A DNA stretch of 64,000 nt from the NCBI GenBank assembly GCA_049290235.1, contig JBATNG010000034.1, positions 3,686 to 67,685 of the forward strand, given 5' to 3'. The stretch comes from Candidatus Moraniibacteriota bacterium. GTDB lineage: Bacteria > Patescibacteriota > Minisyncoccia > Moranbacterales > UBA1568. The notes beneath the pieces are model-generated. The model saw only the letters and a list, made by a program, of their open reading frames with translations. It had not been told where the DNA came from and ran no database searches. Made by a program: the position numbers and the translations under genes. Position 1 is the first letter of the stretch. Each line of letters opens with the position of its first letter. Shown one piece after another: positions 44,231-64,000 of this stretch.

Positions 44231-44357
44231 TTCTTCCTGCCAGATGAACGGCAATCGCTACGTGTCAGTTCTCAACACGAATGACTCCAAGCGGAACCTG
44301 AACCTCAACAACTGGGACGATGAGTGGAATGCCCACTGCCGTTTCCTGGCCGTTCGC
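44231..44357 (+). repeat. DGR template repeat (TR)
   Basis: The counterpart of the VR. The ORF predicted over it (44187-44387), Asn-rich with AAY codons, is not a gene. Confidence 0.85.
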
Positions 44358-44776
44358 TACTCTTCCTGTTTCTCCTGGTATGTGTGACCAGGAGTTTTGT
44401 TTATGAGTTGGCGCCTCCATCCGCCGAGCATCCGACCAATCTCCCCAAGTTGTTCGGCGAGGTAAGCGTACTTGCCATTATCGAGCGCTCGGGTATCCCA
44501 AGCGAGCTGTAATAGGAGTTTCAAAAGGTCAACCCGCGAGATGGCCCTGTTGATGAGGAGTTGCTTTTCGGTTGTTTGTGAGTAGCTCGCCAGGAAACAA
44601 TACTCGATAGTGAGGAGAAATATATCATCAATCTTCGATCCTATGGTGAAGCGCCGGGCTTTCGGAAAGTGGACGAGATATTCCTGCCAAATACCGTACG
44701 CGTCTTTGAGCTTGAGTACTACGGGGATGAGCTTTGGTTGCAGAAGGTTCGGGGGGGGGGTATTCTGTGAGGGCAT
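44357..44776 (-). CDS. avd: Avd-like accessory variability determinant (four-helix-bundle)
   Basis: C-terminal ~120 aa 'LKDAYGIWQEYLVHFPKARRFTIGSKIDDIFL...AISRVDLLKLLLQLAWD...EIGRMLGGW' match the Avd/PF05635 pattern. Start uncertain (M111 or M117 of the long ORF). Contains a C10/G10 tract encoding PPP. Confidence 0.65.
   Translation of the reverse strand: MPSQNTPPPNLLQPKLIPVVLKLKDAYGIWQEYLVHFPKARRFTIGSKIDDIFLLTIEYCFLASYSQTTEKQLLINRAISRVDLLKLLLQLAWDTRALDNGKYAYLAEQLGEIGRMLGGWRRQLINKTPGHTYQEKQEE
44751..44760 (+). repeat. G10 homopolymer at the avd 5' end, 20 nt upstream of the RT start codon
   Basis: Ten G at 44751-44760. Confidence 0.9.
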
Positions 44777-44779
44777 ACA

Positions 44780-45781: not shown

Positions 45782-45791
45782 AAGAAGTAAG

Positions 45792-45820
45792 AAACGGGTG
45801 AAAGCCCCGTTTTCTTTTTT
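45792..45820 (+). terminator. Rho-independent terminator after the RT
   Basis: aacggg-tgaaag-ccccgtt followed by TTCTTTTTTT. Confidence 0.5.
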
Positions 45821-46054
45821 TACATCGTTCTTGTGCCAAAATAAAATAAACACAAAAAGAAAAGCGCGAAAACGCTTTCAACCAATTTTGGAACAGGTGT
45901 CCCTGTCCCACGCGGCAGCACTAATAGAGGCCTGCCGCCCACATCAATGATTCCGCTCTCGGCTCCGGCTGATGGGCGGATTATCATTTCTGGCCCAGAA
46001 AATAGGCCTTTTCCCGCCTTGAAAGAAGCCCTCGTTCGAGCTATACTCGGGGTT

Positions 46055-47329: not shown

Positions 47330-48343
47330 ATGCAGTGGCTGATTCGGAAAATCGGTATCGATTTGGGGACGGCGAATACGCTCGTGTTTGTGCCGGGCGA
47401 GGGGGTCGTCATCAATGAACCCTCGGTCGTCGCTATTTCCCTTTTTGAGAACAAAGTCCTCGCTGTCGGCAATGAAGCCAAAGAGATGCTCGGACGCACG
47501 CCGGATACGATTGTCGCCAGTCAGCCGCTCCGGGATGGAGCGATCGCTGATTATCGAGTGACTGAGGCGATGCTCAAGTACTTCATCAACCGGGTGATGG
47601 GCCGAGTGCGTTTCATCCGTCCCGAGGTTGTGCTTTCAGTCCCGGCGGGCATCACTTCGACTGAGCGGCGTGCGGTCGTCGATGCGGCGATGAAGGCGGG
47701 AGCCAAAGCGGCCTATGTCGTGAAAGAGCCTGTCCTCGCGGCGATCGGCGCAGGCATCCCAATTCACACCGCGCAGGGAAACATGATCATCAATATCGGC
47801 GGCGGGACGTCCGAGATCGCCATCATCTCGCTCGGGGGTATCGTCGCCTCGCACAGCGCTCGGGTCGGCGGGAACAAGATCGACCAAGCCATCAGCGACT
47901 ATATCAAGCGCAAGTACAGTCTGGCCATCGGCGACCGGACAGCCGAGGAAGTGAAGATCGGCATCGGTTCGGCGATCGCTCAGGTGAAAGAAGACCACAT
48001 GGAAGTGCGGGGCCGTGACCTGATGGGCGGGTTGCCAAAGACGATCACCTTGTCGTCGAACGAAGTGACGGAAGCGATCCAGGATGAACTGCGTGAGATC
48101 ATCCATGTCATCAAGCAGGTGCTCCAAGAGACGCCGCCAGAGCTCGCGTCGGATATCATGGACAAGGGCATGGTGCTCTCGGGCGGGACGGCGCAGCTGC
48201 GCTATCTCGACCAGCTCATCGCCAAGACCATCAATGTGCCGTGCTATGTCGCGGATGATCCGGCATTTTGTGTGGTGAAGGGGACGGGTATCGTCCTCGA
48301 AAATCTCGATACCTACAAGCGCAGCTTGATGCTTGGTAAATAA
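47330..48343 (+). CDS. mreB: Rod shape-determining protein MreB
   Basis: 'IGIDLGTANTLVFVPGEGVVINEPSVVA', actin fold. Confidence 0.9.
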   Translation: MQWLIRKIGIDLGTANTLVFVPGEGVVINEPSVVAISLFENKVLAVGNEAKEMLGRTPDTIVASQPLRDGAIADYRVTEAMLKYFINRVMGRVRFIRPEVVLSVPAGITSTERRAVVDAAMKAGAKAAYVVKEPVLAAIGAGIPIHTAQGNMIINIGGGTSEIAIISLGGIVASHSARVGGNKIDQAISDYIKRKYSLAIGDRTAEEVKIGIGSAIAQVKEDHMEVRGRDLMGGLPKTITLSSNEVTEAIQDELREIIHVIKQVLQETPPELASDIMDKGMVLSGGTAQLRYLDQLIAKTINVPCYVADDPAFCVVKGTGIVLENLDTYKRSLMLGK

Positions 48344-48382: not shown

Positions 48383-49549
48383 ATGGGGTTGAGGTTGTTG
48401 GCGGTAAGTTATAAGTTGTCGGTTATGAAAATTGGTATTGATGCTTCGCGGGCCTTCCTTCGTCGTCGGACGGGGATAGAGGAGTACAGTTATCAGGTCA
48501 TCCGTCATCTCCGAGCGGAGCTTCGGGATCAGACGGTGGTTCTCTATGTCCGGAAGAAACTTGAAATCCGAAACTCGAAACTCGAAATGACGGTGCCGGA
48601 TATTGATTTCGACCTCCCGCCGGAGTGGCAGGTGAAGGGCTTGTGGGCACCGCGCTTCTGGACGCAAATTCGACTCTCGCTCGAGATGCTCTGCCATGCG
48701 CCGGACGTGCTCTTTGTCCCAGCTCATACGGTTCCGCTCATCCATCCTCGGAAAACAGTGGTCACGGTTCACGGGCTCGAGTATGAATTTTCGCCTGAGA
48801 GCTATGGGTTCTGGGAGCGGCTCTATATGCGCTGGTCAATCCGGTTTTCGGTGCGAGTGGCTGACCGGGTGATCGCCGTTTCCGAAAATACCAAACGCGA
48901 TCTGATGCGGCTGTACGCTGTGCCAGAGAAAAAGATCCAGGTTATTTACGAAGGTTTGAGTCAACCTACAACCTACAACCTACAACCTACGACCGAAAGC
49001 GAGCCCCCATACTTTTTATTTATCGGTCGTTTGGAGACGCGGAAGAATATCGTGCGGATGATCGAGGCGTTTGAGATATTCAAAGCGAAGACAGGTCTAG
49101 CCCATACGCTCGTCCTCGCCGGTAAACCGGGTTTCGGATACGAGGCGATTCGCTACAAGCTACAAGCTACAAGCTACAAGCAAGATATTCATGAGCTCGG
49201 GTACGTGAGCGAAGAAGAGAAGTGGGAATTATTGAAAGATGCTGAAATATTCCTGTTCCCGTCGCTGTACGAGGGTTTCGGCTTGCCAGTGATCGAAGCA
49301 CAGAGTGTCGGTGTGCCGGTCATTACTGCCAATACATCATCACTCCCGGAGGTGGCGGGGGAGGGCGCGGTCCTGGTGAACCCGCTCGACTCAGGCGAGA
49401 TAGCCGAGGCGATGGAGATGCTGGTCACCGACCCCGAGAAACGGGCTGATATAATAGAAGAAGCGACCCGGAATGTGGATCGCTTCGGTTGGGCGCAGTG
49501 CGCCAAGGGGGTGGCTCAGGCGGTTGGACGACCCTCGTTATCGGGATAA
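48383..49549 (+). CDS. Family 4 (GT-B) glycosyltransferase containing two in-frame heptanucleotide tracts
   Basis: C-terminal 'FLFPSLYEGFGLPVIEAQSVGVPVITANTSSLPEVAG'. Repeat tracts at 48963-48990 and 49153-49180. Confidence 0.8.
   Translation: MGLRLLAVSYKLSVMKIGIDASRAFLRRRTGIEEYSYQVIRHLRAELRDQTVVLYVRKKLEIRNSKLEMTVPDIDFDLPPEWQVKGLWAPRFWTQIRLSLEMLCHAPDVLFVPAHTVPLIHPRKTVVTVHGLEYEFSPESYGFWERLYMRWSIRFSVRVADRVIAVSENTKRDLMRLYAVPEKKIQVIYEGLSQPTTYNLQPTTESEPPYFLFIGRLETRKNIVRMIEAFEIFKAKTGLAHTLVLAGKPGFGYEAIRYKLQATSYKQDIHELGYVSEEEKWELLKDAEIFLFPSLYEGFGLPVIEAQSVGVPVITANTSSLPEVAGEGAVLVNPLDSGEIAEAMEMLVTDPEKRADIIEEATRNVDRFGWAQCAKGVAQAVGRPSLSG
48963..48990 (+). repeat. (AACCTAC)x4 heptanucleotide tandem repeat inside the GT4 gene
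   Basis: Perfect 4 x 7 nt; encodes PTTYNLQPT. Confidence 0.9.
49153..49180 (+). repeat. (GCTACAA)x4 heptanucleotide tandem repeat inside the same GT4 gene
   Basis: Perfect 4 x 7 nt; encodes YKLQATSYK. Confidence 0.9.
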
Positions 49550-49888: not shown

Positions 49889-51028
49889 ATGGGCGAAAAT
49901 AAGCCACAAAAGATACCATCGGCGGAGCCGAAAAGAATAGCTCTGGCGCATGATTTTCTCCTCGCGTGGGGCGGAGCAGAACGGACGTTCAAGGTGCTCG
50001 CGGAGGCGTACCCAGAGGCGCCTATTTATACTTTGCTCGCTGACCCGGCTTTTGTCGCGCAGCACTTCCCGGGGCGCGAGATCCGCACTTCATTCCTCCA
50101 GAAATTCCCGGCTTGGCTCCGCCGGCGGCATCGCTGGCTTTTGCCCCTGTATGCGATCGCGGTCGAGGCGATTGACCTGCGAGACTTCCCGTTCGTCATC
50201 TCTTCCTCGGGGGCATGGATGAAGGGGCTCGTGACCCGGCTCCATACGCGGCATATCGCCTATCTCCATTCGCCCATGCGCTATGTCTGGGATAGTCAGG
50301 AGCGGTACCTGCGTGAGATCGGCCGCGAGCGGAATTTGCCGCTGCGGATATTCTTGTCATACCTGCGTGTCTGGGATCGTCAGTCAGCCGAGCGTCCGGA
50401 TACGTTGCTTGTCAATTCGGATTTTACTCGGCGGCGAGTCGAAAAGTACTATCGGCGCGATTCGACGGTCGTGTATCCCCCAGCGAATGTCCTTCAGGAA
50501 CGAGAGCCGGTGGAAGCCGCCGCGAAAAAGGAATACTTTCTCATCGTCGCGCGGCTCACGCGGTCCAAGCGTGTCGATCGGGTGATCGAGGCCTTCAATC
50601 GTCTCGAGTTGCCGCTCATGGTCATCGGAACGGGTCCAGAGGAGCAGGTACTGCGTGAACTGGCGGGACCGACGATTCGGTTTGCGGGAGCGGCGAGCGA
50701 TCGGGCGCTGGCTTTAGCCTACAGTCACGCGCGTGCCATCATCCAGCCAAGCGAGGAAGACTTCGGTCTCGTTGTCGCCGAGGCGCTGTCCTTTGGTGTC
50801 CCGGCGATCGCGCTCTCGAGTGGGGCGGCCACTGAACTCGTCGAACCAGGCATCACGGGCGAGCTGTACACTGGGAGTACGCCGGAGATGATTGCGGATG
50901 GTGTCCGACGATTCCTAGAACGAGAAAGGCTGTACCAGGCTGAAGCGCTGCGCCAACGGGCAAGCAGATATAGTCGTGAACAATTTCTCGCGGGTGTCCG
51001 GGCCGCAGTGGATCAATATCTGGCATAA
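49889..51028 (+). CDS. Family 4 (GT-B) glycosyltransferase
   Basis: 'EDFGLVVAEALSFGVPAIALSSGAATELV'. Confidence 0.8.
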   Translation: MGENKPQKIPSAEPKRIALAHDFLLAWGGAERTFKVLAEAYPEAPIYTLLADPAFVAQHFPGREIRTSFLQKFPAWLRRRHRWLLPLYAIAVEAIDLRDFPFVISSSGAWMKGLVTRLHTRHIAYLHSPMRYVWDSQERYLREIGRERNLPLRIFLSYLRVWDRQSAERPDTLLVNSDFTRRRVEKYYRRDSTVVYPPANVLQEREPVEAAAKKEYFLIVARLTRSKRVDRVIEAFNRLELPLMVIGTGPEEQVLRELAGPTIRFAGAASDRALALAYSHARAIIQPSEEDFGLVVAEALSFGVPAIALSSGAATELVEPGITGELYTGSTPEMIADGVRRFLERERLYQAEALRQRASRYSREQFLAGVRAAVDQYLA

Positions 51029-51042: not shown

Positions 51043-51909
51043 ATGGATATCTGCGGGCACGAGACGATACGAGCGAGACTCCGCCGGATGGCCGACTCAG
51101 CTGTCATGCCGCAGAGCTTTCTCTTTGCCGGACCACGCCAACTCGGGAAATTCCTCGTCGCGCTCGAATTCGCACAGAAGCTGTCGGGAGCACAAGGTTC
51201 GGCGGAAGATGTGACGGGTGACGTGCTCGTTATCGGAAGACGGGAGCGATCGGATGACAAGGCATCGAAAGCCGCCGGACTGTCGGTCAGCGATATCCGC
51301 CATGCCGAAGCTTTCCTCTCGCGTTTCCCTGGAGGAGGGAAGTACCGAGTCGTCATCATCGATGAAGCGGATCAGTTGACGCACGCTGCCGAGAACGCGC
51401 TATTGAAAATTCTGGAAGAACCGAATTCGACGTCGGTCATCATCCTCGTGACGCATGTGCCGGGGCGATTGTTGCCGACCGTTCGATCGCGGTTGTTTAC
51501 CGTGGCTTTTGCTCCGCTCGCGCCGGAAGAACTGCAATCTCATTTCCCGAAGGTCGATGTACCGGACTTCTTTTTTTCGCTTGGGCTTCCGGGACTCATC
51601 GAAGAGGCGGCCGTCGATCCGATGGCATTTGCGCAGAAGAAAGAGCTGCTGCGGGGATTGTTCCGGCTCTCGCGACTCACTTGGGCCGAGCGGCTATCGC
51701 TCGCCGAACGGTTGGCGAGCCAGTCAGACGATCTCCCGGGACTTTTGGAACTGTGGCTGATCGGCTTGGAACGGCAGCGAGGTGAGCAGGCGATGCAGTC
51801 AGTCGCTTTTGTCACGTTTCTCGATCGCGTCCTCGAGACACTGGATCAGGTTTCGCAGAGAGAAGGGAATCCGCGGCTCATGCTGGAAAGACTGTTTACG
51901 TATGCCTAG
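51043..51909 (+). CDS. holB: DNA polymerase III delta' subunit
   Basis: 'FLFAGPRQLGK', 'VVIIDEADQLTHAAENALLKILEEP', 'PTVRSRLF'. Confidence 0.8.
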   Translation: MDICGHETIRARLRRMADSAVMPQSFLFAGPRQLGKFLVALEFAQKLSGAQGSAEDVTGDVLVIGRRERSDDKASKAAGLSVSDIRHAEAFLSRFPGGGKYRVVIIDEADQLTHAAENALLKILEEPNSTSVIILVTHVPGRLLPTVRSRLFTVAFAPLAPEELQSHFPKVDVPDFFFSLGLPGLIEEAAVDPMAFAQKKELLRGLFRLSRLTWAERLSLAERLASQSDDLPGLLELWLIGLERQRGEQAMQSVAFVTFLDRVLETLDQVSQREGNPRLMLERLFTYA

Positions 51910-52072: not shown

Positions 52073-53026
52073 ATGTTCAAACGGAAAAATTCGGGCCGAT
52101 CGAAAATGTTCGAAGACGCGATGCTCGCTCGCAAGGGGAAACCGCTCCGTCGTCGCATCCCTGCGAGCAGTTCACCGTCGCCCAGGTGGATCTCGCTTCT
52201 ACTTTGGTTGGCCTTTGCGCTCGTCGGTGGGTATATCCTCTTTTTTTCACCAGCACTTCATATCCAGGAGATATCGGTTGAGGGCGAGAGTATCATCCCG
52301 TTCGCTGAATACCAAACGGCGGCGGAGACTGAAATGACTGGGACGTATTTCAGTTGGCTGTCAAAACGCAATTTTTTTCTTGTCCCGTCGGCAGCTATCG
52401 AACGTGCACTCCTTGATCGTTTTCCACTCCTCTCTCAACTTTCTGTCGAGCGGCGGTTTCCTGATCGCATCACACTGCGTCTGACAGAGCGCCCGGTGAT
52501 TCTGCACTGGTGTGCCGGCGGTCCGTGCTATGGCGTGCGGGACGGCCGAGCAGTCGTTATCGGACAGGCGGATGAGAGTCGGTATGCGACGGTCAGACTC
52601 TCAGTCATCGACGGGAGCGCTTTACCGGTGAATCTTGGGGAGTCTATCCCTGTCGATCAGTATCTCGAGACATTTCGAATCGTCCATGAACAGTTGCCGA
52701 AGATCGTCACGGGCACGGTCGACCGTGAGGCAGTGACTCCTTCGCGCCACTCAGGGGAATTGGTACTCTCGCTGGAGGAGGGCTGGCGATTGACCCTCTC
52801 GGTCGAGCGTCCACCCGAGGAAAGTCTGGGGATGCTGAAAATATTTTTGGACGAATATGTGCGCGGTGGCAAGGAACGTTCCCAACTCGCGTCCGTCGAT
52901 CTCAGAGTTGAAGGAAAGGTTTTTTATGCTGAGCGTGGCGGGTCGACCGCAGAGGCAGTGGTCCCCACGACGACCGATCCAGAAGAAAAGCCAGTCTTGA
53001 AGAAAAAGAAAAAGAGCAGTGAGTAG
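52073..53026 (+). CDS. FtsQ/DivIB-like cell-division protein (single TM plus POTRA-like domain)
   Basis: Basic N-terminus, TM 'WISLLLWLAFALVGGYILFF', then 'IQEISVEGESIIPFAEYQ'. Confidence 0.5.
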   Translation: MFKRKNSGRSKMFEDAMLARKGKPLRRRIPASSSPSPRWISLLLWLAFALVGGYILFFSPALHIQEISVEGESIIPFAEYQTAAETEMTGTYFSWLSKRNFFLVPSAAIERALLDRFPLLSQLSVERRFPDRITLRLTERPVILHWCAGGPCYGVRDGRAVVIGQADESRYATVRLSVIDGSALPVNLGESIPVDQYLETFRIVHEQLPKIVTGTVDREAVTPSRHSGELVLSLEEGWRLTLSVERPPEESLGMLKIFLDEYVRGGKERSQLASVDLRVEGKVFYAERGGSTAEAVVPTTTDPEEKPVLKKKKKSSE

Positions 53027-53050: not shown

Positions 53051-55003
53051 TTACCGCGATGATTCGGCTCGAGCGGAGATTTCCTCGGCGCTGATATAGT
53101 ACACGAAGATGGAATCGCCGACACGGAAGTCGGGCTTCCGACCACGCAGCCAGTTATAAGAGAGTTCGCCGGGCTCGAGGGGTTTGTACCAGTTCTCTTG
53201 GAGGAAACCAATCGAGAGACCGTACCAGCCGGCTTCGGGTGCGAGGTGTGAATGCCATCCCTGGTGGTACTGTCCGAGCTGCCACGCCGGGTTGGACCCG
53301 CCGAAGTAATCGACCCGGATGGTATCGATTGTCTGGTCTTTGGGGGTGGCCATCGCACGGAACGGTTCGCACAGCGGTGTCTCGAATTGTTTTTCGACAC
53401 ATTGGTTGTAGTTATCCACGAAACCGCGGAGGCGTCGGAGGTCTTGACCCCAATCATAGTTCGAGTCAGTCACATACTGGTAACCGTTTTCATGTCCACC
53501 ACCGATGATATTGAAGTACGAGAGGTAGCTCGGGTAGGACCAGACAGGGATAGCGATGATCGAGAAGGTCGCGCAGGCCAGGAAAATACGGAGCGTCCGA
53601 TGCGTTGCAGGGTGTTCGTTCTCGCGCTTCAGTATATCGAAGACCACCTTGGCGACGAGGACATAGAGGAAGGGGAGAATCGGGAAGAGGTGGCGGTAGC
53701 CGATATTGAGATTGCCGGTGATGCTGACGTAGCTATAGAAGAGGACAAAGAACACCATCAAGTACTGCGTGATTCGTTCGCGAAATGACGTCGCGATGAC
53801 GGAGAGGAGACTGACGCCGTCTCGCTGGACGAGTGAGCGAGCGATGCGATAGAGGGCATAGAGCGATGTCGTGACGAGGAGGAAGAGCATCGGCAGAGTC
53901 TCTTTCAGGACGAAGACGACGGGGAAATAGAGCGAGGAGGCTTGCTTGGAGACTTCACCGAGGAAGTAGAACGTATTGCCGCCGGCGACCCGGGCGAACA
54001 CCATGAAAACCCCGAGGAAGTATTCGGCGAACGGTTTCAGCAGAGCTGAGCTGCTCATGGCGATGACGCTGGTCTCGGCGAGGCGGCCAATGAGTTTGGT
54101 GTTCGGGAATTGCGCCCGCGCGATTTCGGCGATGACTTCACCCGGCATTTGCGCGGTATTGAAGAAGTACAGGATCCAGATCGCGATGAAACAGACGACG
54201 ACGCTCCCCATGTACTTCAGACCGTAGAAGAAGGCGTTTTTCAGTCGACGTTTCCAAGCACCTGGGACGGTTTCGACGGTGAGCGCGAGTCCATAGAGCA
54301 CGGCAAACATTCCAAAAATCGGGAAGAGCAGCACCGCTGAGAACTTCGCGAGTTGGGCGAGGCCGAGAAAGAGTCCGGACCAGAAAATGTTCTGCGGACT
54401 CGGATTTTTCAGGAAACGAACGAAGAAGTAGAAGGCAAAGAACATGAAGGCGGCGATGCCAATATCGGTCGTGACGTAGTGACTGTGACCGATGATATTC
54501 GGATCGAAGAAGTAGAGGAGGGCAGCAAAGAGACCGGCAACGGTTCCTGCCAACTCTTTGGTCCAGCGGAAAATGAAGAAGCCGAGGAGAAGCGAAACGA
54601 GAATGAAGGGGAAGCGCGCCCAAAAGGTCACGAGATTGGCATCGTTGCCGTTTTGGTGGAGGAGTTTGTCGCCGAATGCCCACTGCGCGAGGCCCCAGGT
54701 CCGGGCTGGTCCCTCCGGGAACGTGGAGAGATCAAGCCAATCACCACTTTCCCATAAGGGATCGCTCTTGGGCATGGCGGGATTGAGTGGGAGGAGAGCG
54801 AGTCCGGCCAAATCTTTCAAGAGAGGCGGGTGTTCGGGATTGATGCGCATGTCCTGATACTGCACGTAGCTGTAGCCGGCGGGGATATGTGCCTTTTCAT
54901 CCATCGTGGTCGACTCCTGATAGGAGATCAAGATGGAGAGAGCAAAAAAAGCGACCATCATGAGGGCGAGGCACTGCGGTGCGAGACGTTTCAAGTTTTC
55001 CAT
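53051..55003 (-). CDS. GT-C membrane glycosyltransferase (GT39/PMT-like)
   Basis: First-loop 'TTMDEKAHIPAGYSY...EHPPLLKDLAG' (DE motif plus HPPL) and at least 10 TM helices. Confidence 0.7.
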   Translation of the reverse strand: MENLKRLAPQCLALMMVAFFALSILISYQESTTMDEKAHIPAGYSYVQYQDMRINPEHPPLLKDLAGLALLPLNPAMPKSDPLWESGDWLDLSTFPEGPARTWGLAQWAFGDKLLHQNGNDANLVTFWARFPFILVSLLLGFFIFRWTKELAGTVAGLFAALLYFFDPNIIGHSHYVTTDIGIAAFMFFAFYFFVRFLKNPSPQNIFWSGLFLGLAQLAKFSAVLLFPIFGMFAVLYGLALTVETVPGAWKRRLKNAFFYGLKYMGSVVVCFIAIWILYFFNTAQMPGEVIAEIARAQFPNTKLIGRLAETSVIAMSSSALLKPFAEYFLGVFMVFARVAGGNTFYFLGEVSKQASSLYFPVVFVLKETLPMLFLLVTTSLYALYRIARSLVQRDGVSLLSVIATSFRERITQYLMVFFVLFYSYVSITGNLNIGYRHLFPILPFLYVLVAKVVFDILKRENEHPATHRTLRIFLACATFSIIAIPVWSYPSYLSYFNIIGGGHENGYQYVTDSNYDWGQDLRRLRGFVDNYNQCVEKQFETPLCEPFRAMATPKDQTIDTIRVDYFGGSNPAWQLGQYHQGWHSHLAPEAGWYGLSIGFLQENWYKPLEPGELSYNWLRGRKPDFRVGDSIFVYYISAEEISARAESSR

Positions 55004-55038
55004 AACACGTCGATGATTGGGTGAATTAGAGGAGATGT

Positions 55039-56658
55039 CTAGGAAGGGAAGCGGAGGACAGTGAATTCGCTCGTCGTACCGGGGTAGAGATCGATCTGTT
55101 CCACTCGGACGTTCGGTCGCAGTTTCTTCAAACGCTCGATGATCGACTCATCCCGATGCATCAGGATGATGAGGCTATTCTTGGTCCGGATGTTGGTCTC
55201 GGGTGTCAGGTAGACGAGATTCTCGATCTTGCCGGCGGTGAGGAACTTGATCGGTTGGGCAGAAACCGGGAGTCCATCCTCCATGATTCGCCCACCACCG
55301 TTGGTGACGATGTATTTCATCGTGTCGTCTGGCAGGCTCATTGCATAGACGGCCATATTGCGGAAGTTCTGATTGAAGGCCCCGTGTTGGTTCGGGTTGT
55401 GGTTGAAGAAGACGAAGTACTTGGTCAGATTGAAAGCCGCGCCGAAGAAAATCCCGAAGGCAAGGAGTGAATACAGTGCGACGCGGCTGCTAGCGAGCGA
55501 GAGACGGGCGCGGTTCACGACCCAGATGATGGGGATGAGGGCGATGAGGTAGACGGGCATCTGGGTGCCGATGGCCCGCAGTGCATGCGGGAGGCCTTCT
55601 TCAGTCAGAAATTCGGGCATGAGCATGACGAAGAAGGCTGAGAGGAGAAACCAGTTGCGGACCAAACGTTCGTCTCGGAGCTTCTCACGGAAGCGGAGGC
55701 CGATGAGCTTGACCGTCTCCCAGATGATATACAGGAAACCCGTGAGGAAAAACGCTCCCGTCACGGGATCGAGGATCGGGTAGGGCGGATAATTGTGTCG
55801 CCAGTTTTGATCGCCCCAGAAATTGTATTTGATCAGAGAGAGACCAAAGGTTTTGCCAAATGTGCCCCAGAAGTCACCCTTATTGATATCGGGGGAAAAG
55901 ATGGAGACGGCTCCGGTGCGCGAAGAGAAGTGATCGGGGTGGATATAAAAATCATAGAACATTGGTGCGGCCGTGATGAATGCCCCGAGGAGAAACGTGA
56001 GTCCATGCTTCCAGTAGCGGGCGAGGAAGCGCTCATAGGTGAGAAGGAGAGCGGGGAGGAGTGCGATCAGGATGAGCGGCGCGAGTCGGAATGCGACATA
56101 GGTGTGGAGACCGGTACCGAGGAAGAGGCCGGCCACGAGGAAGTCACGGAGTCGATTGGTCCGGAGCCCGCGGAAAAAGAAATAGAAAGAAAAGGTGAGG
56201 AGGAACGTCACCATGATCGCCCGGAAGCCGATCCGCGAGAAGTTGATGGCCCAGTAACTGGTGGCGAGGAGAAAAGCGGCGATCAGGGCATACAATCGGC
56301 GCGCGAAAAGTTCTCGCGCGAGGAGGAATATCCCGAAAACGGCGAGCGTCCCGAAAACGACGGACCAAAACTTCAGGACGGGCACGGTATTGCCGAAGTA
56401 TTTGACGGCCAGTGCCTGGAGATTGATGAAGAGCCCTTCGCGGCCGTAGTTGTTCGTATAGAGGAGGCGGTAGTTGCCGGTCTCATTAGCGAGGAGCGCG
56501 TCGGTGCCATTAGTTGCCTCGTCCGGATAGAGGCCAGCGGGCAGCGAATCGAGGTGATAGACCCGGACGAACAGGGCGAGGACGAGGATCGCGAATAAAA
56601 TACAGGGAACCACGCGCTCGGTCCATCGCTTGTCCGGGTGTGCAGTATCAGACAACAT
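55039..56658 (-). CDS. GT-C membrane glycosyltransferase (ArnT/GT83-like)
   Basis: 'AGLYPDEATNG' DE motif after TM1; polytopic. Confidence 0.7.
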   Translation of the reverse strand: MLSDTAHPDKRWTERVVPCILFAILVLALFVRVYHLDSLPAGLYPDEATNGTDALLANETGNYRLLYTNNYGREGLFINLQALAVKYFGNTVPVLKFWSVVFGTLAVFGIFLLARELFARRLYALIAAFLLATSYWAINFSRIGFRAIMVTFLLTFSFYFFFRGLRTNRLRDFLVAGLFLGTGLHTYVAFRLAPLILIALLPALLLTYERFLARYWKHGLTFLLGAFITAAPMFYDFYIHPDHFSSRTGAVSIFSPDINKGDFWGTFGKTFGLSLIKYNFWGDQNWRHNYPPYPILDPVTGAFFLTGFLYIIWETVKLIGLRFREKLRDERLVRNWFLLSAFFVMLMPEFLTEEGLPHALRAIGTQMPVYLIALIPIIWVVNRARLSLASSRVALYSLLAFGIFFGAAFNLTKYFVFFNHNPNQHGAFNQNFRNMAVYAMSLPDDTMKYIVTNGGGRIMEDGLPVSAQPIKFLTAGKIENLVYLTPETNIRTKNSLIILMHRDESIIERLKKLRPNVRVEQIDLYPGTTSEFTVLRFPS

Positions 56659-56729
56659 TTCGTTTTTGTGTTCTTACCTGTTAAAATTATAGCAAATAGG
56701 CTTGGAAAAAGAAAAAATGTAAAGACAGG

Positions 56730-58430
56730 ATGGAACTTATGTCAGATTTGGAAGGTGGGCCGTTCGCAGAGAAACTGAAGGGAGCGATTGCGGGACGAGT
56801 GATCCCCAAGGCTTCAAGCGTAGAGGGACCGGCAATTGCTGACCCGGTTCTTTCGGCTGACAGTAAATCAGGACGGAGAGCACCAGAAGGGAAACCGGAG
56901 AGGGAAAAGTATGAAGGGAAAGGCGGATCAGTTCCAGGACGGGCAATCCATCATCGGGGCGGTTTGGGAACGTGGGCTGAGACGTCGACCTTAGTTTCGG
57001 TTGAGACACAGGTGGAGGGTCGAAACGAGAAAGGACACAATCCTCAGGAACTGATGGACAATATTGAAAAGGCACATACCCTCTTAATGGCCTTGGCATT
57101 GGAACACCCTGAAGCAGAGCTGGATATCAATGGTCAGAATTTCCAGGATTCCGTCAGGGCCGACCTCGAAAAGGCAAAGCAATCAATTGCACCGTATCTC
57201 GAACCTGGAGACTTATCGGAAGTGAATCGTTCGGCAGCCTACTTGGATGCTATTGATACCCTCCGGACGGTCCAGGTGAATTTTGAAGACTATATCAAGG
57301 CGATCCAAGCAGTGATCGAATCGGTTCGTCAAGAGGAAAAATCGAAAGACAGTCGTCAGGCTGCAAGTTTGAAGCCTACTCGCCCGTCCGTTGGAAGAGA
57401 AGAAGATCGTAAACCTGGGTCACGGCGAGGGCGTGAGGGAAGCGCGGTGTCTTCGAGCAGAAATGTGGAAGGGGAAAAGAGTAAGGACGGACCATTAGTG
57501 CAGTCGGTTGAAGTTGAGCCTGGTGAGAGTATCGAGGAAAAAGTCGCGAAGCTGGGGGAGCTCACTGCACGATGGAAGACGCTTCATTCAGGATTTCCTA
57601 AAGACTATCTCTTACATGCAATCAGGAAGGGGTGGAAGGGTGATCTCCCGATGATGAAAGCGGGAGAGTGGTTGAAATCGGGCACTGATCCGAAGAAATG
57701 GAATGCCGACAAACGAGTACATTTTGAAACAAATGTACTCGTTCCAATGGAGAAGTGGGTCATGAAAGCGGAGAAAGCTGCGCCAAAATTGCGTGAGAAG
57801 TGGCAAGAATCGAGAGATGCGCAGGAAAGGAAAAAAACATCACCTGATACGCTCGTTGCTTTGGAAAAGGAGATGCCTCAACCAGTTGTAGTTGAAGCAT
57901 CGGCAGAAGCCGCACCTGCCGTCTCGGTTGGAGAACCAGTGGTTGTCGAGGATCAGTCAGCTGCTGCTCTAGGGGCCGGAGCGGAGCCTACTGTCGTTGC
58001 GACCGATATCCAAAGAGAGCCAGATGCGCCGGATCAGTCTGATCCTGCGATAGCACCTCTTCCGGCGGGAGACCAGGCAGTACTTCCTGATCCGGTTGAA
58101 GCAAAGCCAAAAACAAATGTGAGTGAGATTCGAACTGGCCGTCCCATTGTTGATATCGAGGATTTGACGGCATGGGAACGTTCGGCGGAACAGAACCAGT
58201 TGCGGCGAGAACTGTTCTCGTTGAGAGATAGCTTCGTTTCTCGTCTCGAAGAGCAATTGCGGGAGAAGAAAAAAGATCCTGCAGAGTGTGCACCTGCGAT
58301 TTCACAGGCACTCAGATTGTATCTCTTGGCAAAGATACCGGTAGTGATAGGCAAAATTGAACTCACTGCTTCCGATACAGGGACACTTATGGGAGAATTG
58401 ATGGGAGAAGACCCTGTGAACAAATCCTAG
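56730..58430 (+). CDS. Large hypothetical acidic/lysine-rich protein (566 aa)
   Basis: Long ORF with low-complexity coiled-coil-like composition. No family recognised. Confidence 0.45.
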   Translation: MELMSDLEGGPFAEKLKGAIAGRVIPKASSVEGPAIADPVLSADSKSGRRAPEGKPEREKYEGKGGSVPGRAIHHRGGLGTWAETSTLVSVETQVEGRNEKGHNPQELMDNIEKAHTLLMALALEHPEAELDINGQNFQDSVRADLEKAKQSIAPYLEPGDLSEVNRSAAYLDAIDTLRTVQVNFEDYIKAIQAVIESVRQEEKSKDSRQAASLKPTRPSVGREEDRKPGSRRGREGSAVSSSRNVEGEKSKDGPLVQSVEVEPGESIEEKVAKLGELTARWKTLHSGFPKDYLLHAIRKGWKGDLPMMKAGEWLKSGTDPKKWNADKRVHFETNVLVPMEKWVMKAEKAAPKLREKWQESRDAQERKKTSPDTLVALEKEMPQPVVVEASAEAAPAVSVGEPVVVEDQSAAALGAGAEPTVVATDIQREPDAPDQSDPAIAPLPAGDQAVLPDPVEAKPKTNVSEIRTGRPIVDIEDLTAWERSAEQNQLRRELFSLRDSFVSRLEEQLREKKKDPAECAPAISQALRLYLLAKIPVVIGKIELTASDTGTLMGELMGEDPVNKS

Positions 58431-58434
58431 GACT

Positions 58435-61400
58435 ATGGAATCAAAACCCACAATAATGAATGGAGGTGTTGAGGCACCATCAAGCGCTCAGGAGATAATT
58501 GATACATTTCTGGCGGAGGAATTAGCTGCGATCGAACCAAAGACCGCTACTCCTGCGGCGGCTGATGCTGTGCCACCTGCTAAGCCGGAGCCCACTCAGG
58601 AGGAAGTAGATGCGTATCTGGAAAAATTGGAAAAGGATAGGAAGGGAGTTAGTCCGTTTGGGTATGACAAAGCTCAAGTCGAGCGAGCAGAGGATGAAAT
58701 GCAGGCGAACAATCGAATCGCTGGACGTTCCAAAGAAGACCCGCTCATAGTTCTGCCTGAAGAAGGGAAAATAGACGGTGCGGATCCGAGCCTTTCGCTA
58801 GGTGTGGCAGATCCGGGAGAGGATGGGGAGGATTTAAAAACGAACATGGATGCTGCTGTGGATGACCCTGGAGTCACTACATCTCTACCTCTGCCAACTA
58901 TCGAGCCTTCTTCCATCATCGAAACAGGAAAGAAGTCGAGAAAGAAGAAGAGTGTTCCGAGTTCGGCACCGGCAGCACCTGATGTGACTGGGTCGACCGC
59001 GCAGGTCGGGGAGCCAGATCCCAAGCCGGTATCTTCCGAGGCGGGAAGGTTTAAACTTCCAAAAATAAAAAAAGGTGAATCAATAAAGCTTCGGGCACCT
59101 GATGGCACTGTTCATACCCTAGCGCATAAAGCGAGCGGGTACTGGATCTCAAAAGAAGGGGACTCGAAAGAAGCTTCTATCGCATTGTCGAGTGCCAGAC
59201 AGCATGCCAAGGACGGTGGATGGGTGCTCCTGAAAGAAGGTTCGGGAGTAGTTGGGGCGGAACCTGATGCTCAAGCGCCGAGTCCAGATGCGGCGGCAAC
59301 ACCCAAAGCTGATCCGATCGAACCAGATGCTGCGACCACAGTGCCGCAAGCAGAACCGCTTCCACAGCCGTCAGTGGTCCCGCGAGTTGAACCAATTCAG
59401 ACGCCTGAACCACTACCGATACTAAATGGGGTGGATATCGCGACGGCACTCGTTCTTCTCGATGCTGGAAGCAAACTCGTTTACCGACGGGAAAATGGCA
59501 CGGAGATACGAGTCCAAAAAGAATCGGAGCAATACTGGGTCTACGAAAAGGATGATTCTGGATTCGTCACGGTAGATGCTCTTGGTTTGGAAGATATGGC
59601 AGAGCGTGAGGGCTGGCAATCAGTCGAGGCGCTACCCTTGTTGGGTGCGCAGGGTGAAGCTAAGCCAGACGTGGCGGAGCAAGATGCCAAAATTGCCAAG
59701 TTCCGGGAAGCGGTGACCGCCGCGCGGACCGCTTTCATCACGGCCGAGGAATCGCAAGGGAGCTCTTGGAAGAAGCTGATGCAGACATTTCGCACGCTGA
59801 AACATCGCGAGTCCGATGATCATGATATCCAAGCCTATCACAATGCTTATGATCAGGCTGTCTTGGCGCTGCTGGCGGCTGAGCTGGAGAAATTGAAACA
59901 GTCGGGCTTGAGTTTGCAACAGCTTCGGCCGGAGATGGCCGCGCTCATCCGTGAGTCCCAATTCGACGAGGCCGAACGGATCTATACTGAGCGTCGACAG
60001 CAGCGACTCGAGAAAACAAATCAGTCGCTCGGTGAGAAGTTGGACGCCCGTTGGAAGGAAACGATCGGTAGCCTCGAAGCTGAGGCGGGGAAAGGGGAGA
60101 AATGGAAGCAATACATCAAGTATTTCCTCGGTGCATCGGCCACCTTGGGCAAAGCGGCTGCCCAGGGAATAGAGAAACTCGGTCAGGCCAACAATGAGTT
60201 CTCGAAGAAATATGGCAAGTATATCCTGATCGCGACCGTCACGGTGGGTGGGGCAGTCGCGCTTGGAGCAGCCACAGGAGGAGTGGCATCGGTCGCGATC
60301 GGTGGACTGGCTTTGAAGCGCTTGTTGGGCGGGGCAGGGCTCGCGGTCGGGCTCGAAGGAGGGATGAATTATCTGGTGAATACTCGCCGCGACAAGAAAC
60401 GGGAACGAGTCGAAGTGGACCAAGCAGGGTTCTTCCGGGCGATGGAGGATGAACAGGAAACCAGGGAAGTCGCGGCGATAGCCAAAGGGGAAACCATGAG
60501 TCAGGAAGTCGACCTCTCGCAGCTCGAGGTGTTCTTGAAAGCGGAAGCTGCCAAGGCGCGGAAGGGCGAAGGGGCAAGGCGACGGAATGAACTGTTGCGG
60601 AAATCGGGCGCCGTCTTTGCTGGCGCGCTACTTGGATCGGGAGCCCTATCCCATCTCGCCCATGGATATTTCAGTGGTTCGACTCAGGCGGCGCTTGAAA
60701 CGGCTCCGACCGCGGGGGGTCCCGTAGCCGAAGCCTCGATCCCTCAGTCGGGAACAATACCTATAGAACAGGCCGTACCGGATACTGCCGTCGGTGGTCC
60801 ACAGGGCGGCGTAGCCCCAACCATTGACGGTGCAGCAAGGACGGGTATCCCATTAGATTTTGTGTCGGATGGAGCAGAGGGTGCACCGACAGTACCGTCG
60901 ACCGAACAGAGTCTCGGTCTCACTGATAAAGCTAAGGATTTCATCGCGAGTCATGATGTGAAGCGCGGTGACAGTATCTGGAAGCTGGCAAAGGGTGCGG
61001 TCAAGGATGTGCCGGACATGGATGAGCGCGCGTCAAATCGATTTGCCAAACTCGTCGAGTTGAAACTGCAAGCAAAACTTGATGCTAGTCCGGATATGGC
61101 GCGCGCCGCTGGCTTCGTCGCGGGTCCCGATGGGAAATTTTCTCCTAGCTATATCCAGGCGGGAGCCAAGCTTGAACTCGGCAAGCTCATCTCGGCGGAT
61201 GAGATGAACAAACTCATCGAAGAAGCCAAGGGTAGTGCGCCGATCGAAGTTGCGGCACCAACTGGACCATCAGCCGATGTATCTCCAGGGAAGGGTGGCG
61301 GGATTACACCTGATACTGTGAGCAAACCCGCGGGAGGCAGAGACATTTACCCACGTCTGGTCAAGGCTTTTGAAGAAAGCCAAGCTGCCAGTGCGGCTGG

Positions 61401-61923
61401 TCGACTCGAGTCCGTCATAGTCCCGGATGATGCCGTGGATGGCGTCGTCGAGCTTCGTCCGGAAACAGAACTTTTAAGTCCGACCGGCAACGTAATGACC
61501 TATGTCGAGAGCTTGCCAGCCGACGCTCAGAAAGATATCTTCCGAAACTTCAAACATGTCTCAGAGCAGATCTTTCGAACGGATGAAGTAATGAATACTG
61601 AAGGGTATGATCGGAACTTCAACCCGATTTCGCAGACCGAACTCGCGAAGGCGAAACTAGCCGTTGTGTTATCGAACCACGACGCACTCGTGAAGAACCC
61701 GCTTTCATCTTATGACCGGGTGAAGAATCCACTGCACTGGTCGCAGATGGAAACGGTCGCGAAACTCTCGAAAGCAGCCGGGAAAACATTCGGAACTGAA
61801 CTCGCTCGTGCCCGAACCGGGGAATCGATCCAGGAGTATGTGCTCCGTGTCGTGGCGTTGGCGGGGCATGAAGGCAAAGCGATCCCTGGGTTCCTTAGTA
61901 ACTCTCTCCGATCTCAACGCTAA
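58435..61923 (+). CDS. Giant hypothetical protein (1162 aa) with Pro/Ala/Thr/Glu-rich linkers and a Gly/Ala-rich hydrophobic segment
   Basis: 'PDAQAPSPDAAATPKADPIEPDAATTVPQAEPLPQPSVVPRVEPIQTPEPLP' and 'YILIATVTVGGAVALGAATGGVASVAIGGLAL'. Starts 5 nt after the previous ORF. Confidence 0.5.
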   Translation: MESKPTIMNGGVEAPSSAQEIIDTFLAEELAAIEPKTATPAAADAVPPAKPEPTQEEVDAYLEKLEKDRKGVSPFGYDKAQVERAEDEMQANNRIAGRSKEDPLIVLPEEGKIDGADPSLSLGVADPGEDGEDLKTNMDAAVDDPGVTTSLPLPTIEPSSIIETGKKSRKKKSVPSSAPAAPDVTGSTAQVGEPDPKPVSSEAGRFKLPKIKKGESIKLRAPDGTVHTLAHKASGYWISKEGDSKEASIALSSARQHAKDGGWVLLKEGSGVVGAEPDAQAPSPDAAATPKADPIEPDAATTVPQAEPLPQPSVVPRVEPIQTPEPLPILNGVDIATALVLLDAGSKLVYRRENGTEIRVQKESEQYWVYEKDDSGFVTVDALGLEDMAEREGWQSVEALPLLGAQGEAKPDVAEQDAKIAKFREAVTAARTAFITAEESQGSSWKKLMQTFRTLKHRESDDHDIQAYHNAYDQAVLALLAAELEKLKQSGLSLQQLRPEMAALIRESQFDEAERIYTERRQQRLEKTNQSLGEKLDARWKETIGSLEAEAGKGEKWKQYIKYFLGASATLGKAAAQGIEKLGQANNEFSKKYGKYILIATVTVGGAVALGAATGGVASVAIGGLALKRLLGGAGLAVGLEGGMNYLVNTRRDKKRERVEVDQAGFFRAMEDEQETREVAAIAKGETMSQEVDLSQLEVFLKAEAAKARKGEGARRRNELLRKSGAVFAGALLGSGALSHLAHGYFSGSTQAALETAPTAGGPVAEASIPQSGTIPIEQAVPDTAVGGPQGGVAPTIDGAARTGIPLDFVSDGAEGAPTVPSTEQSLGLTDKAKDFIASHDVKRGDSIWKLAKGAVKDVPDMDERASNRFAKLVELKLQAKLDASPDMARAAGFVAGPDGKFSPSYIQAGAKLELGKLISADEMNKLIEEAKGSAPIEVAAPTGPSADVSPGKGGGITPDTVSKPAGGRDIYPRLVKAFEESQAASAAGRLESVIVPDDAVDGVVELRPETELLSPTGNVMTYVESLPADAQKDIFRNFKHVSEQIFRTDEVMNTEGYDRNFNPISQTELAKAKLAVVLSNHDALVKNPLSSYDRVKNPLHWSQMETVAKLSKAAGKTFGTELARARTGESIQEYVLRVVALAGHEGKAIPGFLSNSLRSQR

Positions 61924-62147
61924 CAAAAAGCAGAAACAAGCGCTTGTCTCATAAAATATCCAGATTTCGGCTGAAAACCTCTCAACGCTCGTCAGGGTAT
62001 CAAGGTAGCCCTCCCTGCCCGAAATGCTACGCATACCGTTGCAGGCGGGCTCACGTTTCAAGCTTTTCCTCTCGAAATCTGAATATTTTCTCGAGACATG
62101 AGATTTGAGAGCGTTACTTATGCTAAACTAATAGAAAATAGATACCT

Positions 62148-62450
62148 ATGGATATCGACTACTCGAAAATCGAAGCGGAACTCATCGAATCGCTCGCGCT
62201 CGCGGGTTTGCCGAAGCCGAAGCAAGAAGAGCTCCTCGCCAAGATGCTCGAAGCACTCCTGAAGCGGATCTTCATGGAAACAATGGAGCGGCTCGGCGAA
62301 CAGGGGATGACGGACTACGAAGCACTCATCGAGACGGCGCCATCCGAGGCGGCAGTCGGGAAATTCCTCGACGAGCGTATCCCGGAGTATAGTACGTTTG
62401 TCCAGCATATCGTCGATCAGTTCAAGAAAGATATCAAAGCGACGGTCTAA
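62148..62450 (+). CDS. Small helical hypothetical protein (100 aa)
   Basis: Clean ORF. No family recognised with confidence. Confidence 0.4.
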   Translation: MDIDYSKIEAELIESLALAGLPKPKQEELLAKMLEALLKRIFMETMERLGEQGMTDYEALIETAPSEAAVGKFLDERIPEYSTFVQHIVDQFKKDIKATV

Positions 62451-62454: not shown

Positions 62455-62859
62455 ATGTGGGAATTCCTCTCTCGAAAAAAAGAAACGCCGCTGGTCATCG
62501 CCGAACCGACGGTTTCGACTCCACCGGTGCCAGAGGGTGCCCCCGTCGTCGAACAGGCGACCGAACAGGCGACGGAGCAGGTGAATGAAAAGTATGCTGC
62601 TATCTTGTCTCAGACGGGTGGCCAGAGTGCTCCGTCGGATGGTGTGGTCAGCGATGATGCGAGTCAGGTGAGTCAGGCGACGGATGCGGCGAGCCGCGTG
62701 ACGCAGCTCGTCGAGCTCGCCCAGGTGAAGGGAGTCGCCCACGCTGTAGCGGTCGCTCGCAAGTTGAATGATTTCTATGTCCTCGACACGATGCATGACG
62801 AACTCGCCGACCGGCTCTATGAAGCACTGAAGGCGAAGGGGCTGATCCAAGGAGAATAG
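62455..62859 (+). CDS. Small hypothetical protein with a TEQA-type 12-nt tandem repeat
   Basis: Start taken at MWEFLSRKK. Contains gcgaccgaacag repeated about 2.5 times at 62555-62590. Confidence 0.35.
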   Translation: MWEFLSRKKETPLVIAEPTVSTPPVPEGAPVVEQATEQATEQVNEKYAAILSQTGGQSAPSDGVVSDDASQVSQATDAASRVTQLVELAQVKGVAHAVAVARKLNDFYVLDTMHDELADRLYEALKAKGLIQGE

Positions 62860-62880: not shown

Positions 62881-64000
62881 ATGCTCTCCGAATTCGATTT
62901 GAATGTCGTGCTCCTTCCGTTGGCATACCTTTCGGGCCTGCTCGCTTTTGTTTCGGGGATTTTCCTCGTCGTGAAGAGTTTTCTCCTGATACGGTTTGAA
63001 GTTTCGCAATCGCTCAATCTCGATCTCGAGACTGTCCAGGTGAGCAAGAAGACGGTCGCAGACGGCGCCTCGCATACGGCCGAGGAATGGCGCGAAGAAA
63101 TCCGCGCGATGGACCAACTCCTCGCTTCGCTTGCTTCACTGAAACGTCATTTTCCTTGGTGGAAGCGTCTTTTTTTTGAGCCACCGCATGTTGTTTTTGA
63201 GATTGCGAACCCATCTTCGAGTGAGGAGATCTTCTTCTACTTGTCGGTCCCAAAGCATTATCGGGAGAGCGTGGAGAAGCAAATTCATAGTTTCTTCCCA
63301 CAATCCGCGATCGAAAAGGTACCGGACTATACGATCTTTTCGCCCACAGGTGAGACGGCGGTCTCTCTTCTCGAACTTTCAGCGGGATTCGCCCTGCCCT
63401 TGAAGACATACAAGACGCTCATGGTGGATCCTCTGAATGAGATCTCCAATGCGCTCTCCAAACTCGAGACCGTGTCCGAAGGAGCGGCCATCCAGATCGT
63501 CCTCGCTCCGGCACCGGCTGGGTGGCGCCATGGTAGTCGACATATCGCACAGAAAATGCAGGAGGGGAAGCGGCTCAAGGACGCGCACCCTGAGTCGTTT
63601 GCCACGATGGTAGGGAAGTCCGCACTACAGGGCGTCACTCATGTCGTCTTGCAGCAGGATGCGAAAGAACAGCGCCAAGAGGAGAAGAAACCGGTCGCCC
63701 TGACGCCGGAGGAACAGGAGCTCGTGAAGACGATTGACGCCAAGGCCAGTCAATCTGCGTTTTCTGTGAATATCCGTCTCCTCGCTTCCGCTGCGACCAA
63801 GGACCGGGCTGAGGCCATCTTGAGTCACCTAGAGAACGCGTTCTCCCAGTTCGAAAACCCTGAAGTGAACCGTTTCCGAGTGAAAAAGCGTTTGTCTACA
63901 AAGAAGGCTGCCTATCACTATATTTTCCGCAATTTCGATCCGGAGGCGGCCATGGTCCTGTCCTCAGATGAGGTGGCAAGCTTTTTCCACTTCCCGATTT
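62881..64000 (+). CDS. Membrane-anchored hypothetical protein, 3' partial (runs off the window); absent from the supplied ORF track
   Basis: Manual translation from ATG 62881 gives 373 codons without a stop: MLSEFDLNVVLLPLAYLSGLLAFVSGIFLVV (TM) ... FEIANPSSSEEIFFYLSVPKHYRESVEKQIHSFFP. Confidence 0.5.
   Translation, partial: MLSEFDLNVVLLPLAYLSGLLAFVSGIFLVVKSFLLIRFEVSQSLNLDLETVQVSKKTVADGASHTAEEWREEIRAMDQLLASLASLKRHFPWWKRLFFEPPHVVFEIANPSSSEEIFFYLSVPKHYRESVEKQIHSFFPQSAIEKVPDYTIFSPTGETAVSLLELSAGFALPLKTYKTLMVDPLNEISNALSKLETVSEGAAIQIVLAPAPAGWRHGSRHIAQKMQEGKRLKDAHPESFATMVGKSALQGVTHVVLQQDAKEQRQEEKKPVALTPEEQELVKTIDAKASQSAFSVNIRLLASAATKDRAEAILSHLENAFSQFENPEVNRFRVKKRLSTKKAAYHYIFRNFDPEAAMVLSSDEVASFFHFPI

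Follow-up and report, generated by a model that had tools for sequence, protein, structure and literature searches.

Gene content and order of the locus

The window examined here is a 64,000 nt stretch of DNA from an uncultured Candidatus Moraniibacteriota bacterium, a member of the candidate phyla radiation (CPR)/Patescibacteria, and all coordinates are positions within it. Towards its end, two genes for polytopic GT-C glycosyltransferases, GT-C1 (650 aa, 53051-55003) and GT-C2 (539 aa, 55039-56658), form a tandem pair on the minus strand. As read from the sequence, an AT-rich divergent intergenic region of 71 bp (56659-56729) separates GT-C2 from an operon on the plus strand, which encodes two large proteins, A566 (566 aa, 56730-58430) and B1162 (1162 aa, 58435-61923), a DUF5663 protein (100 aa, 62148-62450; Pfam PF18908, 1.7e-6), a 134-aa protein termed S134 (62455-62859) and an ATPase resembling type IV coupling proteins (T4CPs). 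The window end truncates the ATPase, so that the translation (62881-64000) covers the N-terminal 373 aa of ~830 aa. With moderate confidence, the locus is interpreted as the junction of two adjacent units, each conserved across Moraniibacteriota: the GT-C pair, and the operon of an orphan T4CP homologue with hypervariable proteins.

The original prediction for this DNA was based on a stretch that ends at 61923, short of the DUF5663, S134 and ATPase genes of the same operon. It described the two GT-C genes as divergent from each other, which they are not; it is the pair that is divergent from the genes of the large proteins. It also suggested that the large proteins could be O-glycosylated substrates or cell-surface fibres, a proposal which is weighed below.

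For comparison, loci were fetched from GTDB species representatives by ATPase alignment (the best 80 of 481 relatives, all of Moraniibacteriota type, with ATPase identities of 60-92%) and annotated with hidden Markov models (HMMs) built in this analysis. Counts refer to the 53 loci with at least 9 kb of upstream sequence, or 54 when the window is included. In 52 of the 53 fetched loci (53/54 with the window) GT-C1 or GT-C2 was found upstream of the ATPase at a distance of no more than 10 kb, the exception being L058, and the order of GT-C genes, variable slot and ATPase is kept class-wide. Among the 54 loci, GT-C1 is present in 51, GT-C2 in 49, S134 in 53, directly upstream of the ATPase, and DUF5663 in 41, where it follows B. 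The distance from the GT-C pair to DUF5663/S134 ranges from 12 bp to 7.9 kb, and the slot between them holds from zero to three large, hydrophilic, hypervariable and mosaic proteins, the last of which typically has transmembrane (TM) segments in its middle and no signal peptide. Downstream of B, each of the four closest relatives has DUF5663, then a gene of 134/135 aa and, wherever the contig is long enough, the gene for an 830-aa protein, with gaps of 4-20 bp; A566 and B1162 are the first genes of an operon that extends into the gene of a VirD4/TraD/TrwB-like ATPase.

The GT-C pair

Both enzymes score best on the Pfam family PMT_2 (PF13231), a likeness that they share with ArnT/GT83. GT-C1 matched PMT_2 at 4.1e-13 and also passed the gathering cut-off of PMT (PF02366; 28.4 bits against 22.7). 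A total of 2893 homologues were detectable, and the best 120 are 47-100% identical to GT-C1, come nearly all from Moraniibacteriota and carry the NCBI name 'glycosyltransferase family 39'. An AlphaFold (AF2) model built from 56 homologues (predicted local distance difference test (pLDDT) 88.4, predicted template modelling score (pTM) 0.90) has ~12 TM helices, a long first loop and a C-terminal α/β domain, and this soluble domain of ~160 aa carries an invariant TDSNxDWGQD motif. When the model was compared with the PDB using Foldseek, the top 31 matches were all GT-C enzymes, led by Chaetomium Pmt4 (9i5k_A, E 2.8e-5, TM score 0.55 on the target), with STT3/AglB, ALG9, PglB and Pmt1-Pmt2 close behind and ArnT (2.1e-3) and AftA lower. 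At the level of the model this establishes the GT-C fold and leaves PMT and oligosaccharyltransferase (OST) enzymes unseparated, as the Pmt4 and STT3 scores are almost equal.

The first-loop motif appears to be more telling than the fold search for the class of GT-C1. Residues D35, E36, H58, P60 and K63 are invariant among the 56 homologues and P59 is conserved in at least 90% of them. In the Pmt of S. coelicolor the conserved loop-1 residues are D113, E114, H159, P161 and K164, and H159 corresponds to K85 of ArnT (PMC8698208). GT-C1 therefore has the PMT-type His, as H58 of its HPPxxK motif aligns with Pmt H159, where ArnT has K85; the spacing of the motif is also that of Pmt (H159-P160-P161-x-x-K164). 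In its fold, its ~12 TM helices, its loop-1 DE motif and its passing of the Pfam PMT cut-off, GT-C1 resembles the Pmt enzymes of GT39 (S. coelicolor Pmt and M. tuberculosis Rv1002c), and a DPM1/GtrB-like GT2, comparable to Ppm1, the polyprenyl-phosphate mannose synthase that partners Pmt in actinobacteria, is encoded in the same genome. It differs from them at the C-terminus, where the ~160-aa soluble domain with TDSNxDWGQD replaces the usual arrangement. Neither GT-C1 nor GT-C2 gave a PMT_4TMC or MIR match (Pfam, E≤0.01), and single-sequence and profile searches of PDB sequences found no HMMER-level similarity between GT-C1 and any solved PMT. For these reasons GT-C1 is called PMT-like here, and not a proven member of GT39.

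Both enzymes had been described as PMT/ArnT-like, with DE motifs in their first loops. The motifs are indeed present and conserved in the homologues of each (56 for GT-C1 and 52 for GT-C2), and the assignment to GT-C glycosyltransferases is borne out, by the fold search for GT-C1, which is PMT-like, and by the Pfam match and DE motif for GT-C2. The ArnT half of the description does not apply to GT-C1, given the His in its HPPxxK motif and the better E-value of Pmt4 than of ArnT; the NCBIfam equivalog model of ArnT gives no match to it, ArnT ranked below PMT and OST enzymes, and no clustering with lipid-A/arabinose transferases was seen. Synthesis of lipid A is not expected in CPR bacteria.

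GT-C2 is a distant paralogue of GT-C1 (31% identity over 97 aa). It matched PMT_2 at 1.8e-10, and its PMT score of 18.9 bits is below the cut-off of 22.7. Residues Y44, P45, D46 and E47 are at least 95% conserved among its 52 homologues, in a Y-P-D-E-A-x-N motif that is almost invariant, and the HPPxxK motif is absent, with N70-x-G-R-E-G-L in its place. The NCBIfam matches to Agl23 and ArnT are weak and far under the cut-offs (16.5 bits against 567 for the ArnT equivalog), and a PDB sequence search with the single sequence gave no match. Judged by these motifs and family scores, GT-C2 is classed as a GT-C glycosyltransferase and a divergent member of the PMT_2 superfamily.

A plausible source of the sugar donor is a GT2 gene on the plus strand (33055-33816, 253 aa; Pfam Glycos_transf_2 3.9e-21), which had been reported as nearby and in fact sits 19 kb off. 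Its product matched the NCBIfam dolichyl-phosphate hexose transferase at 7.6e-13, below the cut-off, and in the PDB the Pyrococcus DPM synthase (5mlz, 4.6e-13) and GtrB (5ekp, 6.5e-8). It is a candidate polyprenyl-phosphate hexose synthase, and the lipid-linked donor of the GT-C enzymes could be supplied by this or another GtrB/DPM1-like GT2.

The pair lies at the end of an envelope/division block on the plus strand, composed of murA (45947-47317), mreB (47330-48343), two GT4 genes (48383-49549 and 49889-51028), holB (51043-51909) and a gene for an FtsQ-like POTRA protein (52073-53026; Pfam POTRA_1 9.2e-7), which is the last of the block and convergent with GT-C1. The two GT4 genes and the FtsQ-like gene had been noted before, and the Pfam scan places both kinds adjoining; the order of the whole block is kept in L001, L005-L007 and most of the 80 fetched loci. 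An LCP (LytR-CpsA-Psr) gene on the minus strand (14592-16190, 1.2e-39) suggests that this organism makes wall glycopolymers and joins them to peptidoglycan. As the window contains both this gene and two GT4 genes, a wall glycopolymer stays a live alternative as the acceptor of the GT-C enzymes. Literature searches found nothing on Patescibacteria with GT39, mannosyltransferase or S-layer, and nothing relevant on the glycosyltransferases of Moranbacteria.

The large proteins and the ATPase operon

The ATPase of the window has a hydrophobic N-terminus, which would serve as a membrane anchor, and its P-loop domain lies beyond the window end and was read from the full-length orthologue in L001. 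JGI annotates the 830-aa protein with DUF8128 together with TrwB_AAD_bind, DUF87 and TraG-D_C. In Pfam the L001 orthologue scored 33 bits for TrwB_AAD_bind (cut-off 20.5) and 25.6 bits for TraG-D_C (cut-off 22) and also matched DUF87; its NCBIfam matches to TraD, VirD4, CedD and CedB are weak, as are those in the PDB to TrwB (1e9r) and DotL chains. The membrane anchor, the P-loop ATPase and the two domains above their cut-offs are features of T4CPs (VirD4/TraD/TrwB). Identity as FtsK was ruled out, since the ATPase matched FtsK_SpoIIIE only at E 0.14 and positions 3-1217 of the window encode a canonical FtsK, which has a gamma domain.

One difference from known T4CPs is the DUF8128 region of ~350 aa. 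Another is that full-length homologues, at 21-23% identity, are carried by phages, namely Bacillus phage G (gp156), CP-51, JL and Shanette, and Geobacillus phage TP-84; the match to phrog_5156 is at 1.8e-88. The phage genes, such as TP-84 gp48 (5857-8121 of L088) and CP-51 gp91 (5749-8484 of L089), are placed in early or replication regions, and in CP-51 a gene for 'replication initiation by nicking' follows directly. A scan of viral contigs found no relatives. Among 5,713 VirD4 homologues of Patescibacteria only 148 are near virB4, and exaptation for other functions has been raised (PMC12102498). The window ATPase belongs to this orphan population, being encoded away from any virB4 like most of its members, and its partners A, B, DUF5663 and S134 are without counterparts in known type IV secretion systems.

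Concerning these partners, S134 had no significant family match. A word-index search with the DUF5663 protein returned 52 close homologues, the close ones being from Moraniibacteriota, and no literature on DUF5663 was found. In L074 a single 840-aa open reading frame (ORF; 4839-7361) encodes both a B-type protein and, at residues 735-831, a DUF5663 domain (E 1e-21). The fusion may be natural or may come from a frameshift in the assembly, and it lends weak support to a partnership of B and DUF5663.

In the window itself, the junction between these two genes carries an insertion of ~208 nt (61895-62122) that is absent from relatives such as L002. It takes the place of the final four codons of B1162, so that …GFRMLN becomes …GFLSNSLRSQR, and widens the gap to DUF5663 from 16 bp to 224 bp. 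The insertion folds into an imperfect, long hairpin (z -5.4 and -6.3 on the plus and minus strands) with terminal inverted repeats. The window contains a single copy, none of the fetched loci has one, and Rfam gave no match; the insertion may be an element like a miniature inverted-repeat transposable element.

The genes for A566 and B1162 are real ORFs with homologues, and neither product has a Pfam, NCBIfam or PHROG match. The acidity previously ascribed to A566 is mild (96 D+E against 80 K+R). As its N-terminus is hydrophilic, with no signal peptide, and hydropathy shows no TM segment, A566 is taken by default to be cytoplasmic. B1162 likewise has a hydrophilic N-terminus and no signal peptide. 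When hydropathy is averaged over 32 homologues, two hydrophobic stretches stand out as conserved, at 592-642 and 724-745; the first is the Gly/Ala stretch that had been pointed out and is of hairpin length. Basic residues in the B family average 4.9 per sequence before the hairpin, 5.5 after it, 6.9 just before 724 and 1.4 after 745. By the positive-inside rule, B1162 would have its N-terminus inside, residues 643-723 would form a cytoplasmic loop, and the C-terminal ~415 residues would be external. Its first ~590 residues, with most of the Pro/Ala/Glu linkers, are accordingly predicted to be cytoplasmic.

'Low-complexity', the label given to these proteins originally, is too simple for B1162. 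Its AlphaFold model (mean pLDDT 64.6) is modular, with six confident segments, at 210-265, 335-395, 413-550 (helical), 640-740 (helical), 830-935 and 1010-1150, the first two being similar small β-plus-helix domains. Four long disordered linkers lie at 96-204, 268-332, 746-827 and 941-1006, and 411 residues have a pLDDT below 50. Foldseek against the PDB gave nothing better than E 0.05, and those matches are long-helix noise; a profile search of PDB sequences found no match. A LysM domain was considered for the segment 'VKRGDSIWKLAK' at 842-852, which recurs in some homologues, and was rejected as Pfam and Foldseek give no support. One NCBI protein of Candidatus Moraniibacteriota (P0002) is a fragment 100% identical to B1162. 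A profile search of 1.84 billion cluster representatives placed 126 members in the B family, whose conservation is limited to profile positions ~385-510, 550-760 and 1040-1126, the N-terminal ~380 residues being variable.

The genes of the locus evolve at very different rates. At the distance of L008, identity to the L001 orthologues is 92% for the ATPase, 89% for DUF5663, 87% for GT-C1/GT-C2, 59% for S134, 41% for B and 25% for A. The A566 of the window is 47% identical to its orthologue in L001, where the ATPase is 93% identical, and it is the fastest-evolving gene of the block. Alleles of B are also mosaic. In alignment columns 1-250 the window protein is 83-100% identical to P0001 (98-100% beyond column 50) and 8-43% to P0003; in columns 600-700 it is 92-98% identical to P0003 and 50-72% to P0001; and in columns 700-950 P0001 and P0003 are 78-100% identical to each other and the window protein 25-54% to either. 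This mosaic pattern points to recombination between lineages.

Hypervariability and mosaicism are typical of exposed proteins, and could be taken to favour the view that the GT-C enzymes are dedicated protein O-glycosyltransferases with the two large proteins as their specific substrates, forming glycosylated fibres or an S-layer. The PMT-like character of GT-C1 and the class-wide adjacency would agree with it, as would the disordered linkers rich in Pro/Thr/Ala/Gly (747-830 and 941-1006) in the part of B1162 predicted to be external, and known S-layer and O-glycosylated surface loci similarly place glycosyltransferases beside large, fast-evolving proteins with Pro/Ala/Thr-rich linkers. We nevertheless consider this view unlikely. 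It does not fit A566, which is predicted to be soluble and cytoplasmic, nor the N-terminal ~590 residues of B1162, where most of the linkers and the most variable part would be on the cytoplasmic side. The proteins have a Ser+Thr content of only ~12%, Pfam finds no S-layer, SLH or cell-wall-anchor domains in either, and they share an operon with a VirD4-like ATPase. The two gene sets are also not strictly coupled. Both GT-C genes lie directly beside the S134-ATPase genes with no large protein in L042 and L066, a B-type protein is present and GT-C2 absent in L070, L075 and L077, and GT-C1 with its 2893 homologues is far more widespread than the B family. These decoupled loci speak against an obligate enzyme-substrate pairing of the GT-C enzymes and the large proteins. 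Of the proposed surface substrates, then, what may still stand is the C-terminal ~415 residues of B1162; A566 and the N-terminal two-thirds of B1162, by the same prediction of topology from hydropathy and K/R flanks, would not qualify. Only the two C-terminal linkers would be within reach of an enzyme acting outside the membrane, and these GT-C1 might O-glycosylate.

Alternatively, the position of the large-protein genes immediately upstream of the ATPase gene, with no Sec signals in their products and extreme divergence and mosaic alleles, could be that of cargo or effectors, which the ATPase would recognise through a conserved C-terminal domain by analogy with VirD4-recognised effectors, in which a variable N-terminal region is joined to a conserved C-terminal domain used for recognition. 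The B family, with its variable N-terminal ~380 aa and conserved C-terminal block (1040-1126), has a layout of this kind. The conserved C-terminus is however predicted to be outside, away from the cytoplasmic ATPase, the TM segments of B1162 are conserved, A566 and B have no conserved C-terminal domain in common, and the Pfam-annotated loci (L001, L002, L005-L007) contain no VirB4 or channel genes. A role as cargo is therefore thought very unlikely.

Relationship between the two units and other elements of the window

As a control for synteny, the downstream neighbours of the ATPase were examined, and these are kept in 35/48 and 25/48 loci, despite the weak two-sequence HMMs used to detect them. 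Since downstream neighbours are also often conserved, the adjacency of the GT-C genes and the ATPase is compatible with general synteny and is no proof of a functional link.

It is possible, although doubtful, that the GT-C pair and the ATPase operon cooperate in an integrated envelope apparatus, such as a glycosylated structure that spans the envelope and serves to attach to the host or exchange DNA, with co-regulation from a shared divergent promoter region. The strong general synteny in the class may account for the 52/53 adjacency, and the two sets of genes are on opposite strands. The 71-bp divergent region could hold shared promoters, and in L042 the GT-C2 gene ends only 12 bp from the S134-ATPase genes; a promoter and terminator scan gave site counts no higher than in shuffled sequence. 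Nor is the association without exceptions, as L058 and L069 have no GT-C in the upstream flank of the ATPase and five loci are without GT-C2, two of which (L065 and L076) also have no B-type protein. A more specific version would be an envelope machine particular to Moraniibacteriota, in which the ATPase, DUF5663 and S134 drive or assemble the hypervariable B protein and the GT-C pair O-glycosylates its external part, the whole being a contact or translocation apparatus for an episymbiotic lifestyle; this we regard as quite unlikely.

Under the preferred reading of two adjacent units, which would be functionally independent, the first is a tandem GT-C pair, presumably dependent on polyprenyl-phosphate sugars, at the end of the envelope/division block. 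Its acceptors would most likely be general ones of the envelope, either exported or membrane proteins or a wall glycopolymer, glycosylated at the outer face of the membrane. The second would be the divergent operon of one or more hypervariable soluble proteins (A566), the mosaic B1162 with three predicted TM segments, DUF5663, S134 and the membrane-anchored ATPase. By analogy with T4CPs and from the phage context, an ATPase of hexameric type may power the translocation of DNA or of protein at the membrane, where B1162 would be its partner.

Several points weigh against this reading. The adjacency of the GT-C genes to the ATPase operon exceeds the conservation of the downstream neighbours, and the 71-bp intergenic region would permit co-regulation of the two units. 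Substrates of actinobacterial Pmt are glycosylated in a context of Pro/Thr/Ala/Gly-rich linkers, which the external linkers of B1162 resemble. Pfam families of VirB4, VirB6, VirB8 and relaxases were not found within 10 kb of the ATPase in L001, L002 and L005-L007, and all of the loci compared lie within Moraniibacteriota.

CPR/Patescibacteria are believed to rely on host-cell contact, and their surface biology is poorly known. A tempting annotation by adjacency is corrected here, as the locus does not resemble a cassette for an S-layer or for O-glycosylation. In addition, one family of the orphan VirD4-like ATPases of Patescibacteria gains a defined context, as part of a fixed operon that also comprises DUF5663, a small protein and a slot occupied by large proteins that are mosaic and evolve very fast. 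If GT-C1 were shown to glycosylate proteins, Pmt-type O-glycosylation would be extended beyond Actinobacteria to the CPR.

Elsewhere in the window, an insertion of low G+C content (0.49) at 41936-45900 separates a thioredoxin-reductase-like gene from murA, two genes which are adjacent in L005-L007. It contains an AbiEii-like ORF (42345-42962) and a diversity-generating retroelement (DGR; 43324-45781). The 3' end of the reductase gene is duplicated on either side of the AbiEii-like ORF, as two 80-nt copies of 89% identity (41936-42015 and 42969-43048). The DGR has its variable repeat (43755-43881) at the 3' terminus of an ORF of 189 aa (43324-43893) and its template repeat at 44231-44357, and a reverse transcriptase of 333 aa is encoded at 44780-45781 (RVT_1 7e-23). 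The 127-nt repeats are 86% identical, and the template has an A at every one of the ~18 mismatches. A link between the DGR and the large proteins was ruled out by the location of the variable repeat in the 189-aa ORF. ComEC is encoded as two overlapping ORFs, of which the one at 28872-30386 carries the Competence domain and the one at 30343-31212 the metallo-β-lactamase domain; this could reflect a frameshift, a split gene or a programmed overlap, and an ORF for a HipA-like kinase (23595-24554) follows ftsZ.

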